Shown: positions 898 through 42,030 of the stretch, in pieces | Numbering within the stretch: position 1 is the stretch's first letter | Layout of the letters: every line of letters starts with the position of its first letter | Source: a virus | Taxonomy: Duplodnaviria; Caudoviricetes | Reading direction: 5' to 3' (one strand) | Length of the DNA stretch: 42,030 bases | Virus record (IMG/VR): IMGVR_UViG_3300034110_000260 | Location: 1-42,030 of that record | Position numbers and translations under genes: made by a program | Notes under the pieces: generated by a model | Told to the model about the DNA's origin: nothing | The model's database searches: none | Seen by the model: only the letters and a program-made list of their open reading frames with translations

Positions 898-2299
898 TCT
901 CAGCCCTCACTGTTAAGCCTGAAATGTTAACCGATGCGTGCGTAGTCATTCGGAGCTTAAAGCCGACCTTATCTCTAACTCCGCCAACGCGAGGCATCAC
1001 AGGCACTTTGTTGTAGCCTGCCGGAGTTGAGATTGGCAGCGTATGCTCGCCGCTGTACGTGTAGCCGTTTTCAGTTGCTGAAATGCTCAATACAACGGTT
1101 GAGTCACTAAAGCCCGAGACTGTATCAAGCGACAGGTCAAAGAGAAAAGCCTTGCCCGTCTTAACGATTGGCGTCTGTAAATACGCCTCTTGCATCCGAC
1201 CATATTGCGCAATCTCCGAAATATATCGACCAATAACGCCTGTTGCTTTATCTCCGCACTCAGTGTCACCTGTTAGCGGATTATATCTCACATCGATTGG
1301 AGTCCACCGACCGCCAGCCAAGCCTGTTTGCAGCTTGATCCAAGTTTGCGCATTGGCAAGATAAGCAATCGTTTCTGTCGGCAAGTGAACATAAAGAATT
1401 GGCTCGCCTTTCCAAGTTGCCGACTCTAAAACAGTCTTTTGTAATTCTTCGTCGGAATATTGCTGAAGCACCTTATCAACTTCTGGCGTTGATAGCTTCT
1501 GACCGCCGTTTGCAGTTATGACGTTAATACTTGGCGGCATGTTTCGACCAGAGCCAAGCAGGGCAATCATGTCAGCAAAAAGGCATTTAGCCTGCGTAGC
1601 AATACAGCCAAAAGGAACAACCAGTGATTGCTGGCTTACATAAATTTCAGAGCTGTCGCCAGTAAGTCTAAAAAACTCTGTAGAGTTTCGACCAATGACA
1701 ACAACGTAATCATGCCAAGTTGTGATAGCAACGTTGTCGTCAACATCAGACTCAGCAGAGTAAATAGGAGCAATGTAATCTGGGCGCTGCTCGTTTAATA
1801 GGTCTGTGACAATAAAGCCTGGCGGAGCTAACCAGATGTAACGGCCTTTATTTCTAGTAACGTCAATAATGCCGCTCAAGTCATAGCTAGTCGGTCCGCT
1901 TGGATTCTCTCCAACTTGCCAGTTTTTAAACTGCTTCAGCTCTGAACCTGTCCAGTAGTAGCCATTGCCATCAGCGCCTGTGAATGCCGTAGTTAAGCTA
2001 GAGTAAGCCATTGATACGCGAGCGTCTTCTGGCAGCGTTGCGACTTCTACGCCGTTTCTATGCAGCTTGTTGCCAATGACTCGATACATGGCGTTATCAA
2101 CTACATTGAATATTGCGCCATTGCTGCGGTTTAAGCCTGTATCTTGGATTTGCTCGGTGCCAGGATGATTGATGAAGTAACCTTGCGCATTCGGTGCTTG
2201 CGCGTTGATTGGCATCATGTTGATTGGCAGAAAGTCGCGATAGTCCGCCGATTGATCAACTGATTGTCCTTTGATTAATGGCAAGCTGATGATAGGCAT
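890..2299 (-). CDS. P22 gp10-like packaged-DNA stabilisation protein / tail hub
   Basis: 469 aa; MPIISLPLIKG..ADYRDFLPINM..YRVIGNKL..RVSMA..FIVTDLLNEQRPD..AES match P22 gp10 motifs. Confidence 0.92.
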   Translation of the reverse strand: MPIISLPLIKGQSVDQSADYRDFLPINMMPINAQAPNAQGYFINHPGTEQIQDTGLNRSNGAIFNVVDNAMYRVIGNKLHRNGVEVATLPEDARVSMAYSSLTTAFTGADGNGYYWTGSELKQFKNWQVGENPSGPTSYDLSGIIDVTRNKGRYIWLAPPGFIVTDLLNEQRPDYIAPIYSAESDVDDNVAITTWHDYVVVIGRNSTEFFRLTGDSSEIYVSQQSLVVPFGCIATQAKCLFADMIALLGSGRNMPPSINVITANGGQKLSTPEVDKVLQQYSDEELQKTVLESATWKGEPILYVHLPTETIAYLANAQTWIKLQTGLAGGRWTPIDVRYNPLTGDTECGDKATGVIGRYISEIAQYGRMQEAYLQTPIVKTGKAFLFDLSLDTVSGFSDSTVVLSISATENGYTYSGEHTLPISTPAGYNKVPVMPRVGGVRDKVGFKLRMTTHASVNISGLTVRAENG

Positions 2300-2646
2300 T
2301 ATTTGCCACCGAAAGCGAATAAAGCAGCGATAGCTGCCGGACTTAGTAAAGTGGAAACCAGCAGCCAGCTAATCTTGCCGCCGAAGTTTCTGATGCTATC
2401 AATCATTGGCTGATTAGCTGCGGCTTGCTCGCGTAAAGCTCTGACGTCTTTCGTCAGCTCAGTTGATTGGGCTGCAACGTGATCATGCTTGACCATGTAT
2501 CTCTCCAGCGTTGCCACTAATTCTTGAATGGCTTTAGTCGAAGACTTTTGCCCGTCAATCATTTCACGCGTCGAGGTTTGAATCGCGATAATCTCGCGTT
2601 CGTGCTGGTCTACTTTCTGCCGCAGGTTTATCAGTTCGTCGCTCAT
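2299..2646 (-). CDS. Coiled-coil protein with C-terminal TM helix (holin/XhlA-like architecture), copy 1
   Basis: 115 aa, heptad-like N-terminus, hydrophobic ISWLLVSTLLSPAAIAALFAF; ~82% identical to 41561-41911 by manual alignment. Confidence 0.8.
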   Translation of the reverse strand: MSDELINLRQKVDQHEREIIAIQTSTREMIDGQKSSTKAIQELVATLERYMVKHDHVAAQSTELTKDVRALREQAAANQPMIDSIRNFGGKISWLLVSTLLSPAAIAALFAFGGK

Positions 2647-2743
2647 GTTTCATGGCCTTACATAAATTTAGAATCACTATTAAAGCGATTATAGTTTGAA
2701 CTGTTACCAGTACGCAAACGACTATTAATATGTGTTCGTTCAA
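2564..2743 (-). CDS. Putative overlapping single-TM peptide
   Basis: TTG at 2743 with AGGGAG 7 nt upstream; encodes HILIVVCVLVTVQTIIALIVILNLC then a basic tail; frame also open in second copy (41826-42017). Confidence 0.4.
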   Translation of the reverse strand: MNEHILIVVCVLVTVQTIIALIVILNLCKAMKHERRTDKPAAESRPARTRDYRDSNLDA

Positions 2744-2765
2744 CGGCTGCACTCCCTAGCACCGC
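2639..2765. repeat. 127-bp exact direct repeat, copy 1 (circularisation point)
   Basis: tcgctcatgtttcatggcc...ccctagcaccgc identical to 41904-42030. Confidence 0.95.
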
Positions 2766-3158
2766 AAACAGCACGTCTAAAGGTATCGAAAACTCTTGAC
2801 GTATAGCGTGCGCTTTATAAATCATTGATAAATTTGCTAATTGGTCTAACAGCATAGCGCCGTTTAACAACAAGCTAGTCCCAATGATAGCGCCATAAGC
2901 GAAATAAATCCTTGTGAAATTGTGATGGAAAGTTGATAAATATATGATAGAGACAAGCATCAAGCTATCTATACTGCATTGGATGGCATAAGTGCCGTAT
3001 GTTGTTTCTGCATCAGCTTGCACAAGGCTGGTAATATTGTACGGAGTTGCGATCAGGAAGGTTAAGTAATAGGCAATAATTAGAAAGCAGAGGTTTAACC
3101 CTCTGCCACTAAAAAGCCATATTGCCGCAATGACAATTAAAGCTGCTTCGTTACTCAT
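2658..3158 (-). CDS. Multi-pass membrane protein (4-5 TM)
   Basis: 166 aa with several long hydrophobic stretches; ATGA-coupled to upstream peptide ORF. Confidence 0.8.
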   Translation of the reverse strand: MSNEAALIVIAAIWLFSGRGLNLCFLIIAYYLTFLIATPYNITSLVQADAETTYGTYAIQCSIDSLMLVSIIYLSTFHHNFTRIYFAYGAIIGTSLLLNGAMLLDQLANLSMIYKAHAIRQEFSIPLDVLFAVLGSAAVERTHINSRLRTGNSSNYNRFNSDSKFM

Positions 3159-3226
3159 TTTTTAGCTGGCTTCTTGCCGTTTGAGTTAACTGGCTTGTCT
3201 TTCACTGGCGTACCTTGCTTTGGCAT
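3155..3226 (-). CDS. 23-aa Lys/Pro-rich peptide MPKQGTPVKDKPVNSNGKKPAKK
   Basis: Strong SD (TAAGGGG) upstream of ATG; stop overlaps start of the 166-aa gene (ATGA); below ORF-track cut-off. Confidence 0.7.
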   Translation of the reverse strand: MPKQGTPVKDKPVNSNGKKPAKK

Positions 3227-3251
3227 TGCTTACCCCTTAATAAGTTAAGTT

Positions 3252-3297
3252 ATCGCCGCGACTCATCCATGAGAAGCTCCGGCGATTTAGTATAGCA
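3252..3297 (-). promoter_or_regulatory. Extended -10 promoter (TGcTATACT) and leader hairpin with CsrA/RsmA consensus site
   Basis: TGCTATACT at 3297-3289; UCAUGGAUGA at 3272-3263 fits (A/U)CANGGANG(U/A); flanked by ATCGCCG/CGGCGAT stem. Confidence 0.55.
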
Positions 3298-3298
3298 T

Positions 3299-4162
3299 TT
3301 ATTCAGCAGGCATACGCAAGAAGCCTGCGTCGTATATAACACTAAGCCACTGACCGAAGTCAACACAACCAGCTTTTATTGCTTCATCATAAGCAGCATC
3401 AACAACTCGCTTTTTCTCTGCTTCGGCCTTGCGATTGTGGTCTAGTGGACGAAAGTCAACTGACCAGCCTAGACGACCAACATCACAGTATTCAAATTGT
3501 GATGCCTTAAATGCTGCAACATCTTGCACAGAGTTGTTGGCGTGATGAATAACTGTGCAATCAACAAATACCTCATCAATCCAAACCTGACATTTAGTGC
3601 CAACAGGTGGCAAAGAAATAGCCTGTTGCGCTTCGTAATCGTACCAATCACTTACATTTTCAGCATTTGACTTACTTTCTGGAATTTCACTTACAAAGCC
3701 AAAACCACCAGAGCCGCCTCCGATATATTGGCAACTACTTATCGTAATTTCACTTACAGAATCCAAATAGCTTGTGTCTGCTGGTTTGTAGCGTTGGTCG
3801 GTTATTTTGAATTTAAATACATTTGACCAGCTCAATCCACCAACCTGACCACAAGTCCAAAATGCGTAAACATCGTTTCTTACTTGCACACTGGCATCCT
3901 CAGGTAAATCAGGCTTCTTGCCATTAGTCGGATATTCAACGCCGTATCTATATCCATTAATGTAACCTAGTTCGCGGGCGCGTTGTTCAAACTCGTATTT
4001 GTAAACGTTCCAACCTGTGTAATGCTTTTTACCTGAGCCGCAATGACATAAAACACTTACTCCATCATCGTATAGGCCAGCGTATTCATCTTCTGGTCTA
4101 ATCATTGGCCAAAGGCCATTACTTTCATGCACCGCCTTATCAATCAATTCCTGCTTATTCAT
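3299..4162 (-). CDS. Moron-like hypothetical phage protein (287 aa)
   Basis: Likely start MNKQELID at 4162 with GAGG SD; has own promoter; non-structural-looking gene within late region. Confidence 0.75.
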   Translation of the reverse strand: MNKQELIDKAVHESNGLWPMIRPEDEYAGLYDDGVSVLCHCGSGKKHYTGWNVYKYEFEQRARELGYINGYRYGVEYPTNGKKPDLPEDASVQVRNDVYAFWTCGQVGGLSWSNVFKFKITDQRYKPADTSYLDSVSEITISSCQYIGGGSGGFGFVSEIPESKSNAENVSDWYDYEAQQAISLPPVGTKCQVWIDEVFVDCTVIHHANNSVQDVAAFKASQFEYCDVGRLGWSVDFRPLDHNRKAEAEKKRVVDAAYDEAIKAGCVDFGQWLSVIYDAGFLRMPAE

Positions 4163-4224: not shown

Positions 4225-4256
4225 GAAAAACAAACCAGCACAAGGCTGGTCTGTTT
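4225..4256 (-). terminator. Rho-independent terminator of candidate sRNA
   Basis: AAACAGACCAGC-cttgt-GCTGGTTTGTTT followed by TT. Confidence 0.6.
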
Positions 4257-4420
4257 GCTGCGATGTCGGCACTTAGCAGCTAAAGCGGAAAGGTAGAAAC
4301 CGTACTATGTGGACGGAAAGAACCTGCCTTCAACAATTTCAACAGAGAAGCTAAGGCGATTGGAGGAAGGCCAATCTAGTCTGTAACTCTGCATCGGCCA
4401 TTGTTGCCAAGCTGAGGAAT
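4225..4420 (-). ncRNA. Candidate structured small RNA (~195 nt)
   Basis: Bounded by TTGCGC-17-TAATCT promoter (4455-4427) and a terminator; no SD-led ORF; hairpin GATTGG-CCTTCCT-CCAATC and other pyrimidine-rich motifs. Confidence 0.5.
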
Positions 4421-4455
4421 AGGTTTAGATTAGCGCAACGCTTTGAATTGCGCAA

Positions 4456-4482
4456 TAAAAAAGGCGACCGAAGCCGCCTCTT
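4456..4482 (-). terminator. Terminator after major capsid gene
   Basis: GAGGCGGC-TTCG-GTCGCCTT-TTTT. Confidence 0.85.
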
Positions 4483-4496
4483 TATTTTGTTGGCTA

Positions 4497-5633
4497 TTAA
4501 CCCAACAGTAACGCTGTGTGTTCTGGCTTAATGTTTTTAACACCCCAAGCAAGCGCAATTTCGTAACGGATTTTGCGGTAGCCTGGGTAGATTGACACTT
4601 CAAAAGCCAAGCCTGAGCGTGGATCTTGAATGGTCATTACATCAATCGCCATATCGCCTTCTTGCGGACGTTGCGGCATACGAGTTGCCAACACGATTGC
4701 AGAGCGGTTGAACGCTAAGTTACGAGCTGAGCTGTTAACTACGGTCATTGCTGCATTGTCAGCTAATGCTTTGCGTAAGCCTGGAGCAGCCAATACCAAA
4801 GTTCCGCCAGATAAAGCAGTTGCAACAACATACTGGTTTGTATCGCCTGCGAATGTAACGATGTCGCCAGCTAATACAGTGCCAGTGCCAGTATCAACAG
4901 CAATCGAAGTCGCACCAACAGCATAACCAGCGCCGTTGTTTACTAAGTAGCTTGCGCCAGTACCTTTGGTGAAGCTAACAACTTGACCAGACTCACGAAC
5001 AGCCATACCTGAAAGCGTTTGGAAGACACCTTGGTTAAGGATGCTTGGTTCAAACACTACAGAAGAGTTTGATTGCTTGCCTAAGAAGATCGCGCCAGCA
5101 GAAGTGTTAACTACTAACTGGTTATCTTGTACAGGTGCGCCGTTGTCTTTCAGGATTTTAAGCGCCTGAGTTGCGTCAGTGAAGTCGCCAGCAGTGCCAA
5201 ATGGAGTTGTACCAGCGGTGCCGTAAGCGCGTGACATAGTGCTATGCAATCCGCACAAGTCTGCTTCGATTTCGTTAACCAAAGTACGCATTGCTTGTGC
5301 AATTTGGTTTACTCGGATGTTGCCATAACCTACACCAGAGTTTAAGCCAACTTGCTCGTTACCTTCCCATGAGAAAGGAACAGCTTTTGCTTTGTTGATA
5401 ACGATTGCAACGTTATCGATAGTTTGATCCGCAGCAGCAGGAACGCCCATTGCCGGAGTGATGCTTGAGCTAGTGTTAGTCGGAACCACTGGCACACGAA
5501 CTGATTGACCTTCAGCAGCACGATCAACGCGAGCATCCATCGTAACAGCCGGAATCATGCCAACTAATTCACGTGATACAACGTCAAGCGCTGCGTACAG
5601 GTCAGGAACCAAATTTGTTAAAGTGTTAGCCAT
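4497..5633 (-). CDS. Major capsid protein, P22 coat protein family
   Basis: 378 aa; MANTLTNLVPDLYAALDVVSRELVG..., C-terminal YEIALAWGVKNIKPE; follows scaffold; terminator downstream. Confidence 0.88.
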   Translation of the reverse strand: MANTLTNLVPDLYAALDVVSRELVGMIPAVTMDARVDRAAEGQSVRVPVVPTNTSSSITPAMGVPAAADQTIDNVAIVINKAKAVPFSWEGNEQVGLNSGVGYGNIRVNQIAQAMRTLVNEIEADLCGLHSTMSRAYGTAGTTPFGTAGDFTDATQALKILKDNGAPVQDNQLVVNTSAGAIFLGKQSNSSVVFEPSILNQGVFQTLSGMAVRESGQVVSFTKGTGASYLVNNGAGYAVGATSIAVDTGTGTVLAGDIVTFAGDTNQYVVATALSGGTLVLAAPGLRKALADNAAMTVVNSSARNLAFNRSAIVLATRMPQRPQEGDMAIDVMTIQDPRSGLAFEVSIYPGYRKIRYEIALAWGVKNIKPEHTALLLG

Positions 5634-12452: not shown

Positions 12453-12480
12453 ATTATAGCAAACAGTTTTATTATTGCAA
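12453..12480 (-). promoter_or_regulatory. Sigma70-like promoter TTGCAA-16-TATAAT with extended TG
   Basis: Direct reading. Confidence 0.75.
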
Positions 12481-12481
12481 A

Positions 12482-12934
12482 CTATTTTATCAACTCCAAT
12501 AAGTTATCAATCAATATCTGCTCAGTCAAATCATCCACAAAAGCTGGTGGAGTAGGTACGGCGCACCATGAAGCATCAACAACTTTACACTTGCCTTTGC
12601 AGTCGTCGATCATTTCACCATGCTCTTTGCGAAGCCACTCAGTCAACGCGCTGTGCTTATACGGCGCTGCTAATCGCGTCCACTTGGTCAGCGTTTTAGT
12701 CTTTCCGTTGCGCTCGACTGCATTAACCACCAATAAGATGGCCCATTTAAACGCAGTGCGGTCTAAAGCCTGTGCGATAGACTGACCTACCGCTTCAGGT
12801 TTCGACGTCTTGTAGTTGATTACATCAACGCCTTTATCTACTTCTGACAGTTTCATAGTCAACGCCAAGTTGCGCATTGCTATGATTGATTGGGTGATTA
12901 GTCGCTTGTTTTGGTTGTGGGGTTTTCTTTTCAT
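12482..12934 (-). CDS. Hypothetical protein
   Basis: 150-aa ORF in operon orientation. Confidence 0.7.
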   Translation of the reverse strand: MKRKPHNQNKRLITQSIIAMRNLALTMKLSEVDKGVDVINYKTSKPEAVGQSIAQALDRTAFKWAILLVVNAVERNGKTKTLTKWTRLAAPYKHSALTEWLRKEHGEMIDDCKGKCKVVDASWCAVPTPPAFVDDLTEQILIDNLLELIK

Positions 12935-41114: not shown

Positions 41115-41561
41115 TCAGCCCCTTTGCAATCCTGAATTGCCTCTCACAAACGGCATTAGCAATCTGTCAAGCTCTGGCACTCGCGCCTTGTATGTTACCT
41201 GCGAGCCGGATTCGTAACTAACCGACTTTGAACCAACGCCATCGAGCGATTTGGATTCTGCTGCAATTAATCCGCCAGCAAGCACAGTTGCATCAAGTGA
41301 CAATCTTCCTGCCTGTTGTAGCTCAACAGCTTTTAATGCTGCCTTGCTAATATCAGCAATGGCAACAACATCAGTCGGCAAGCTCATTGCCTGCGCTGCG
41401 TCTAGCTCTTGGCCTTTGAAGTTGTAGTAGGTATCAATGAAGTCAGCAGATAGGATCAAATCTTGGTCAAGCGTTGCATTTGATACAACAATCCCGCGCT
41501 CTGCTGCGTAGGCTTCATAAGCTGCTGCTGTAGTGTAAGAGTTTGTGCCGAGTGTAGCCAT
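41115..41561 (-). CDS. Head-tail connector/adaptor (DnaT-like family)
   Basis: TNSY..YAAERG..ADFID..FKG..Q..VGSKSVSY..LDRLLMPF. Confidence 0.78.
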   Translation of the reverse strand: MATLGTNSYTTAAAYEAYAAERGIVVSNATLDQDLILSADFIDTYYNFKGQELDAAQAMSLPTDVVAIADISKAALKAVELQQAGRLSLDATVLAGGLIAAESKSLDGVGSKSVSYESGSQVTYKARVPELDRLLMPFVRGNSGLQRG

Positions 41562-41911
41562 TACTTACCCCCGAAGGCGAACAAAGCTGCAATAGCTGCC
41601 GGACTGAGTAAAGTTGAAACCAGCAGCCAGCTAATCTTTCCGCCGAAGTTTCTGATGCTGTCAATCATCGGCTGGTTTGCTGCGGCTTGCTCGCGTAAAG
41701 CTCTGACGTCTTTTGATAGCTCGCTAGACTGAGCTGCAACGTGGTCATGCTTTACCATATACTGCTGAAGGGTAACAACTAAATCCTGAATAGCCTTCGT
41801 CGATGACTTTTGACTTTCAATCATGTCACGGGAGAAACTGCGTATCTCGATGATCTCCCTGTCGTGCTGGTCTACTTTCTTCTGGATGCTGCCGATCAGT
41901 TCTTCGCTCAT
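41561..41911 (-). CDS. Coiled-coil protein with C-terminal TM helix, copy 2
   Basis: 116 aa homolog of 2299-2646. Confidence 0.8.
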   Translation of the reverse strand: MSEELIGSIQKKVDQHDREIIEIRSFSRDMIESQKSSTKAIQDLVVTLQQYMVKHDHVAAQSSELSKDVRALREQAAANQPMIDSIRNFGGKISWLLVSTLLSPAAIAALFAFGGK

Positions 41912-42030
41912 GTTTCATGGCCTTACATAAATTTAGAATCACTATTAAAGCGATTATAGTTTGAACTGTTACCAGTACGCAAACGACTATTAATATGTGT
42001 TCGTTCAACGGCTGCACTCCCTAGCACCGC
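41904..42030. repeat. 127-bp exact direct repeat, copy 2 (contig end)
   Basis: Identical to 2639-2765. Confidence 0.95.

Follow-up and report, generated by a model that had tools for sequence, protein, structure and literature searches.

A phage cassette encoding a short peptide, a predicted five-helix membrane protein, an embedded reading frame and a holin-like protein: a candidate accessory unit of lysis timing

Genes of the cassette and their conservation

We analysed a virus record of 42,030 nt (IMG/VR record IMGVR_UViG_3300034110_000260), here called the window, in which lambda-like replication genes are present. Its minus strand carries a cassette of four genes: a 23-aa peptide open reading frame (ORF) at 3226-3155, a gene for a 166-aa inner-membrane protein with five predicted helices (3158-2658), a 59-aa ORF with a single transmembrane (TM) segment embedded out of frame at 2743-2564, and a gene for a 115-aa coiled-coil protein with one C-terminal TM segment (2646-2299). 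The first-pass annotation, made from the sequence alone, had the peptide, 166-aa and 115-aa ORFs in these places and missed the fourth, embedded gene. It described the locus as a mobile membrane module without a named family, and suggested that homologues should retain the upstream peptide ORF and the downstream gene.

We tabulated 45 loci, comprising the window, Pseudoalteromonas phage HS1 and 43 metagenomic contigs; many are close relatives, so the counts given below are not independent. Duplicates and loci cut short (L016, L058, L062, L069, L071, L077 and the re-fetched L032-L049) were omitted. A peptide ORF was found 5' of the five-helix gene in all 45 loci (42 by rule; L002, L021 and L022 by eye), and all 42 loci that extend far enough have the coiled-coil/TM gene next. 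This linkage, which bears out the suggestion above, persists even where the five-helix proteins are only 22-25% identical. The cassette is carried by siphoviruses, by P22-like podoviruses and by HS1 and HS5, two phages of Pseudoalteromonas that are its only sequence relatives in culture (35.7% identity). A tblastn search of cultured phages returned no match for the 115-aa protein or for the distant homologues P0123 and P0134; a weak Gordonia phage hit of P0129 was dismissed.

The gene following the cassette could be assigned in 34 loci and was not reached in 11. It is a neck gene in 20, P22 gp10 in four, a probable terminase in eight (inferred from size and position), and a set of small genes followed by terminase in HS1. 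In the remaining locus, L030, the cassette runs directly into an endolysin-family gene (phrog_873, E 1.7e-63). The cassette thus keeps its order in at least three genomic positions and travels as one unit from one phage type to another, and the description as a mobile module holds.

The disordered tail of the 166-aa protein contains oddly invariant residues (L148, Y156, N157), and the +1 frame of every uncut locus examined encodes a 19-residue stretch of strong hydrophobicity with basic residues behind it. In the window this frame opens with a TTG start and overlaps both the 166-aa and the 115-aa genes. Its Shine-Dalgarno (SD) sequence, AGGGAG (2757-2752), is written into the codons for Leu134, Gly135 and Ser136 of the 166-aa protein. 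All 27 loci compared, which represent 18 distinct contexts, encode Gly135-Ser136 as GGG-AGY; in the part of these genes that lies further upstream, GGG serves for 21 of 156 glycines and AGY for 147 of 274 serines. A TTG, GTG or ATG codon stands eight bases past the embedded SD in 26 of the 27 loci; in L025 it comes one codon sooner. The position of the embedded start is fixed in L018 and L020, where it comes immediately after a stop codon. Both elements are present in 41 of the 42 assessable loci (three of the 45 could not be assessed), and the hydropathy of the embedded ORF is 2.55-3.19 in the 40 uncut loci. As judged from these codon and spacing patterns, the embedded SD and start codon are shown to be under selection, and there is strong indirect evidence that the 59-aa ORF is translated. 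Annotation overlooks the embedded single-TM ORF in phages HS1, HS5, PEi21, JD001, PEAT2 and KB2. An embedded spanin of the Rz/Rz1 type, in which the inner +1-frame gene specifies a lipoprotein with a lipobox Cys inside the gene of a single-TM coiled coil, was considered and rejected: no lipobox was called in the 59-aa ORF, its Cys is absent in distant homologues and the host gene is polytopic. The one locus without the embedded SD, L076 (5001-5806), has lost the ORF together with the NQPxI motif of the coiled-coil/TM protein described below and has kept the peptide and the five-helix gene, making it a natural test case.

Upstream of the peptide ORF, a strict extended -10 motif without a -35 (TG-n-TATACT; TGCTATACT) lies at 3297-3289 on the minus strand and is promoter-like; a consensus promoter scanner, which requires a -35, did not report it. 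The strict pattern occurs only twice in the window. The second occurrence, at 12453-12482 with a -35-like TTGCAA, is 5' of small ORFs and a 250-aa gene (12203-11451). Upstream of the 45 loci an extended -10 was seen in 19, among them relatives of 22-25% identity, a plain -10-like hexamer in nine, and neither in 17. The motif is followed by a 33-nt leader hairpin (3285-3253). The minimum free energy of 3220-3300 is -21.9 kcal/mol (z -2.26; 5 of 200 shuffles fold as well), and there is no Rfam match. The hairpin recurs in 24 of the 45 loci as 14 distinct sequences, with one inner pair varying between C-G and A-U (by eye). The gp10-linked P22-like loci L010, L011 and L064 have neither the extended -10 nor the hairpin. 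The promoter-like motif and structured leader first proposed for the cassette are confirmed in the window, and neither is universal.

The peptide ORF has a strong SD (AAGGGG, 3238-3233) and is joined to the 166-aa ORF by an ATGA overlap, as first described; the 4-nt overlap is found in 35 of the 45 loci. An SD precedes the peptide in 42 loci by rule and in two more by eye; in L002 (about 4925-4935) it is missing and the ORF is intact. The peptide begins with the motif M-P-x-x-x-T-P-[VI]-K and continues into a variable, low-complexity tail. Its first nine residues are conserved, with Thr6 and Pro7 each present in 22 of 29 distinct sequences and encoded by several synonymous codons; the conservation of Pro-2 is by construction, being demanded by the ORF rule, and the same ORFs are present in unfiltered listings. 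The peptide has no signal peptide and no hydrophobic segment, and its net charge ranges from -4 to +8 across the 29 distinct sequences. A hairpin separates the peptide from the next gene in eight of the 45 loci, the peptide being retained in each. A second, tandem peptide in L021 and L022 was rejected, since the ORF lying upstream there is a post-coat gene of 50-55 aa with no relation to the peptide.

Two simple roles for the peptide can be weighed on these data. It might be a cationic outer-membrane disruptor that replaces spanins, or else a mere translational leader, in keeping with a net charge of +5 to +8 in 22 of 29 peptides and with the frequent 4-nt overlap. We regard this as very improbable: the other seven peptides, with net charges of -4 to +1, are neutral or acidic and still carry the N-terminal motif, several of these phages carry spanin-like pairs, and the ORF persists where it is uncoupled, with Thr6 and Pro7 kept through synonymous codons. 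It also seems improbable that the cassette is a toxin-antitoxin or counter-defence unit, in which an abundant unstructured peptide would neutralise toxic membrane proteins or act as a decoy for a host defence sensor. A peptide in molar excess would fit its first position, its strong SD and the terminator-like hairpin that follows it in L021, L022 and L068; but Pfam, PHROG and NCBIfam gave no family match (PADLOC was not searched), and neither the late-region position nor the holin likeness of the last gene would be explained.

The 166-aa protein has 106 homologues at 90% clustering, with 37 representatives at 50%. None is informatively named, and the protein belongs to no Pfam, PHROG or NCBIfam family (PADLOC was outside the search). 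An AlphaFold model built from a 62-row alignment has helices at 2-17, 23-37, 50-77, 79-108 and 112-135 (predicted local distance difference test, 78.6; predicted template-modelling score, 0.69), in line with the four to five TM segments first predicted. Lys and Arg are found in loops 1 and 3 and in the tail, whereas Asp and Glu occupy loops 2 and 4 and the N-terminus, from which an N-out/C-in topology is predicted. In wide alignments the invariant residues are N3, Y30/Y31, Y88, S95, Q121 and D128, and by this topology the conserved polar residues N3, Y57, Q60, D64, R120, Q121 and D128 would lie in the outer half of the protein. When solved structures were searched for a similar fold, nothing but generic helical bundles came up, the best being a designed bundle at Z 10.3, with none at E<=0.001. 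Against predicted viral proteins the top matches were about 15 uncharacterised look-alikes of 139-178 aa, with template-modelling scores of about 0.4-0.7 and most E values above 0.001. A Foldseek match to phage phiCbK was not located in the two genome stretches examined. The predicted complex of the five-helix protein with the embedded protein scored 0.01 against a mark of 0.32, which speaks neither for nor against an interaction.

The layout of a short ORF beside a multi-TM protein had also raised the possibility of an AgrD/AgrB-type pair, in which a membrane peptidase would process a precursor into a cyclic signal peptide. AgrD has an amphipathic leader and a ring-forming Cys (thiolactone), and AgrB is a membrane peptidase with an invariant Cys/His pair. 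Besides the layout, Cys24 and His117 of the 166-aa protein are conserved among close homologues. However, neither is invariant in distant ones, and the wide alignments contain no invariant Cys or His at all, which argues against a peptidase. All 29 peptides lack a Cys and an amphipathic or hydrophobic leader, there is no AgrB match, and no kinase or regulator gene lies nearby. Of all the explanations considered we find this the hardest to credit.

Outer loop 2 of the five-helix protein (residues 38-53) is its most variable segment, with a conservation of 0.46 as against 0.63-0.93 in the helices. The corresponding DNA (2998-3058) is exchanged between otherwise near-identical alleles in the manner of a specificity cassette, matching L007 at 25 of 60 nt where the other bins match at 45-59. 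Such a loop would suit superinfection exclusion, which is the main rival to the lysis-timing function proposed below. The cassette would then be an envelope-conditioning moron whose five-helix and small TM proteins block DNA entry by related phages, with the loop setting specificity and the coiled-coil protein as partner. The host-type extended -10 in 19 loci and a position away from the endolysin in 33 of 34 loci also fit. Against this, the cassette is always in the late-gene region and on the late strand, in most cases coupled with a neck gene, with gp10 or with a terminase gene, and podoviral copies are without the promoter. In addition, the last gene is holin-like and endolysin-adjacent cases exist. 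There is also no sign of a function maintained in lysogens: two pattern scans of 185,579 GTDB genomes, which miss distant relatives, found no homolog of the 166-aa or the 115-aa family. We consider exclusion a minority possibility that deserves to be kept in mind.

The holin-like protein and a possible role in lysis timing

The 115-aa protein has one C-terminal hydrophobic segment behind its coiled coil, as had been claimed, and this is the architecture of holin-like proteins of the phage N4 gp63/XhlA type. The motif NQPxI[DE] just before the C-terminal helix is kept even at 15-24% identity, L076 being without it. N4 gp63 is a 110-aa coiled-coil, C-terminally anchored pinholin in which lysis inhibition (LIN) mutations, from S62 to I72, cluster before the TM segment; N4 has a second holin, gp62 (bioRxiv 10.1101/2025.11.12.688109). 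When 20 members of the 115-aa family were aligned with nine of the gp63 family by HHalign, the probability was 88.9% (E 2.4e-6) over 53 columns that include the LIN stretch and the TM segment. The reversed control gave 11.8%, and none of 60 architecture-preserving column shuffles came near the score (maximum 21 vs 39). Weak matches to the hemolysin/XhlA-like phrog_1193 were obtained for 14 of 23 members (best E 1.7e-4) and to the holin phrog_24402 for nine of 23; gp63 matches phrog_1193 as well. ESM Atlas look-alikes include XhlA and DUF7201 clusters, which we take as a lead. Neither window allele matches PF10779 (XhlA) at E<=0.1, and the 115-aa protein of the window has no match to phrog_5211, gp63's own family. 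We file it as a protein that may work like gp63, and not as a member of that family.

The lysis genes of the window lie elsewhere. A DUF5675 putative endolysin (30628-30242, minus strand; PF18925, E 3.4e-28) is followed by a GTA_holin_3TM protein (30245-29808, minus strand; PF11351, E 2.9e-17), both separate from the cassette. No lipoprotein or spanin pair was detected in the window. Seven other genomes were examined, the lysis locus of G007 and G013 not being resolved. G002 and G008 carry DUF5675 with a 147-aa protein that resembles the 3TM type by eye, G001 a 3TM protein with a 65-aa two-helix protein, and G011 and G014 a 58-aa hydrophobic protein with Rz/Rz1-like genes. The PF11351 search, positive in two of 18 records, undercounts, the G002 and G008 proteins having been seen by eye only. 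In the genomes examined the 3TM type (G000, G001, G002, G008) and the Rz/Rz1-like genes (G011, G013, G014) are mutually exclusive, hinting that the GTA_holin_3TM 'holin' might perform the outer-membrane step.

These data bear on a further alternative, which we consider unlikely: that the 115-aa protein is the main holin, GTA_holin_3TM performs the outer-membrane step, and the peptide and five-helix protein are intracellular antiholins with no signalling involved. The missing spanin pair in the window and the mutual exclusion of the two gene types, 3TM-type genomes showing no spanin pair and Rz/Rz1-like genomes no 3TM match, favour it. On the other side, G001, G011 and G014 each have one more small holin-like gene at their lysis locus, Pfam and PHROG both name the 3TM family a holin, and the polar pocket of the five-helix protein is predicted on the outer side. 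The cassette usually comes in addition to a lysis locus, which is what one would expect of a regulated second holin.

We propose, at about even confidence, that the four genes form an accessory lysis-timing unit at the inner membrane, made up of a holin-like effector, an embedded cofactor or brake, a five-helix sensor and a peptide ligand. Lysis timing was among the functions first offered for the locus, together with exclusion and AgrD/AgrB-like processing. It has gained from the gp63 likeness and from the cassettes beside endolysin genes in L030 and, for a like-built unit, in PEi21 and Jedunavirus; AgrD/AgrB-type processing finds no support. In the mechanism that we envisage, the 115-aa protein would be a C-terminally anchored holin of the gp63 kind that builds up in the membrane until, at a set time, it causes depolarisation, and would be held back at the stretch before its helix, NQPxI[DE], which aligns with the LIN stretch of gp63. 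The embedded 59-aa protein, co-expressed with the five-helix protein, may relay the state of the latter to the holin as a holin-level cofactor or brake. The five-helix protein would be the sensor, with a polar pocket facing the periplasm and the peptide's N-terminal motif as its likely ligand. Being leaderless and made in excess, the peptide would meet this pocket only via membrane lesions or when it comes from lysed neighbours. Default lysis would be provided by the second holin-like gene beside the endolysin, as by gp62 in N4.

Several observations weigh against this proposal. An endolysin gene is directly downstream in only one of the 34 homologous loci with a known next gene. Another holin-like gene is present at the endolysin/spanin locus in the window and in at least five of the seven genomes (G001, G002, G008, G011, G014), so that lysis does not demand the cassette and these phages have no need of it as their only holin. 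The DUF5675 protein shows no anchor, whereas a pinholin normally serves a signal-arrest-release (SAR) endolysin. The gp63 match is partly generic, as heptad-block shuffles with an intact TM part equal the real score in four of 60 cases, and the gp63-family invariants F69, G78-A79-G80, G83 and W107 are not kept in the 115-aa family. An HHalign value of 3% between the 166-aa family and its fold look-alike in phage PEi21 (see below) gives no evidence of sequence homology. The host-type promoter could express the cassette early, which would fit exclusion as well. Finally, the authors of the N4 study argue that LIN is not triggered from the periplasm (bioRxiv 10.1101/2025.11.12.688109).

A more far-reaching version of the lysis-timing proposal, to which we give rather little credence, is a quorum system that senses lysis in lytic phages of Gram-negative bacteria. 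Infected cells would stockpile the leaderless peptide and free it on bursting; infected neighbours would sense its N-terminal motif through the five-helix receptor, with the outer loop setting specificity for a phage group. The receptor would act through the protein embedded in its own gene to restrain the gp63-like holin, and lysis would be delayed as hosts run out. If this were true, the fold look-alikes in phages of Edwardsiella, Klebsiella, Caulobacter and Rheinheimera would make such a system widespread. For LIN in N4 the holin target is known and the inhibitor and signal are not (bioRxiv 10.1101/2025.11.12.688109). For lysis delay outside the T4 group, the cassette would offer, within 1 kb, a candidate for each of the roles of sensor, transducer, ligand and holin. 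Should it turn out to be no more than an accessory holin and its antiholins, it would extend the diversity of lysis genes only modestly. The question can be tested directly, since the cassette is present in the cultured phages HS1 and HS5 and a like-built unit in PEi21 and Jedunavirus.

Setting of the locus and a probable assembly chimera

The first-pass annotation had placed at least the distal part of the cassette in both podoviral and siphoviral contexts on the strength of the window itself, in which P22-like gp10 and its neighbours occupy 2299-1 and siphoviral neck and tail genes 41561-30629. A second allele of the distal part of the cassette, including the 3' end of the five-helix gene, lies at 41561-42030 on the minus strand, with a siphoviral head-tail adaptor gene behind it. 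It carries the embedded ORF (42008-41826) and a 116-aa coiled-coil/TM copy (41911-41561) that is 82% identical to the 115-aa protein. A 136-nt stretch (2630-2765) recurs at 41895-42030 with 99% identity, and 2293-2592 also recurs in the window at 81%.

When the window was compared with independent contigs, 3298-2698 was closer to siphoviral alleles, at 54-60 of 60 nt per bin (L001, L002, from offset -20 on), than to podoviral ones (24-54 of 60); below about 2340 it matches podoviral loci L010 and L011 only. A contig identical to 2639-3306, from one public run, ends at 2639. The window is thus probably an assembly chimera of two phages joined inside the cassette, at the near-identical 136-nt stretch, and the two contexts most likely meet in it because the assembly joined the phages where both share cassette DNA. 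On the simplest reading the record would comprise a complete circular siphophage of about 39.3 kb and a 2.3-2.6-kb spur from a co-occurring podophage, a lasso assembly. The spur (1-2630) carries gp10, a 183-aa gene and a cut 116-aa gene 90% like L011. The cassette itself is independent of the chimera. The same 115-aa allele is found among siphoviral genes in L001-L006, and in L010, L011 and L064 all four cassette genes lie ahead of gp10, so its occurrence in both phage types stands on independent contigs. The public runs that best hold the sequence are labelled as lake, freshwater, plankton and wastewater metagenomes. The runs were compared as contigs; two RNA-labelled ones (X21, X24) cover parts of the sequence, which cannot show transcription.

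On its upstream side the cassette is bordered by a terminase-portal-scaffold-coat block (10816-4497, minus strand). The position between coat and neck genes given earlier is correct, except that a 286-aa gene (3299-4159; phrog_3483 in its C-terminal part) intervenes after the coat gene and has its own sigma-70 match at 4221-4194. This gene is highly mosaic among relatives, and many contig joints fall there. Between it and the coat gene, 4228-4479 is a structured non-coding stretch with several hairpins, 82-88% conserved in L001, L011 and L034. At the coat gene (4497-5633), as seen against L001 and L005, close relatives exchange two unrelated major capsid genes, of 378 and 323 aa, both of which sit behind the same scaffold gene.

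Comparison with known systems

N4 gp63 resembles the 115-aa protein in its length of about 110 aa, N-terminal coiled coil, C-terminal TM segment, P-x-I-[DE] before the helix and a second holin-like gene in the genome. It differs in adjoining gp62 and a SAR endolysin, with no peptide, five-helix or embedded gene annotated beside it, and the invariant GAG..G..W motif of gp63 is absent from the 115-aa family. With the holin-associated XhlA/hemolysin-like proteins (PF10779; phrog_1193, phrog_937) it shares the coiled coil, the C-terminal TM segment and a weak PHROG and ESM resemblance.

In LambdaSo, a Shewanella prophage, the 65-aa protein Lcc6 has an N-terminal TM segment; its gene lies outside the lysis cluster, and the protein is required at the holin level (bioRxiv 10.1101/2024.01.23.576932). 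By this precedent, a gene remote from the endolysin may still have a role in lysis. Compared by the description in that preprint only, the 59-aa protein is like Lcc6 in size, N-terminal TM segment, cytoplasmic tail and remoteness from the endolysin; Lcc6, as described there, has a gene of its own within a cluster of six ORFs near xis, whereas the 59-aa gene is embedded in the +1 frame of the five-helix gene. LIN in T4 (holin T, antiholins RI and RIII) and in ICP1 likewise relies on separate regulators that restrain the holin and respond to phage density outside the cell (bioRxiv 10.1101/2025.11.12.688109). The T4 regulators are soluble, and the system has neither a peptide nor a polytopic receptor.

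Both arbitrium (AimP/AimR) and Agr place a short peptide gene beside a possible receptor, as does the cassette. AimP has a Sec signal and its receptor is a cytoplasmic tetratricopeptide-repeat protein; arbitrium was ruled out, since our peptide has no hydrophobic segment and its neighbour is a five-helix membrane protein. In a literature search from which subscription journals were largely missing, no unit of peptide, polytopic receptor, embedded TM gene and holin was found described.

A unit built like the cassette is found in Edwardsiella phage PEi21. Its ORF50 is a fold look-alike of the 166-aa protein (Foldseek E 0.027 and 0.09; template-modelling score 0.47-0.52); a 41-aa peptide comes before it, a +1-frame single-TM ORF overlaps it and an 89-aa last protein with weak holin matches comes after it. 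The quartet (ORF49-51) lies back to back with a SAR endolysin and spanins, and no other holin is annotated. In the literature listing, as far as it extends, no study of the PEi21/Jedunavirus quartet turned up. Relatives of the PEi21 protein occur in 78 phage records, and the same layout was present in all three related myoviruses opened (JD001, PEAT2, KB2); the quartet beside endolysin and spanins is thus seen in myoviruses of Edwardsiella and Klebsiella. Tandem repeats are present in PEi21 ORF49 (L050, 27644-27769; three 11-residue units) and in L053 and L055, as in multi-copy signal precursors. The PEi21/Jedunavirus peptide is rich in Lys, Gly and Pro like that of the cassette, but has these internal repeats, and the last gene has its TM part first.

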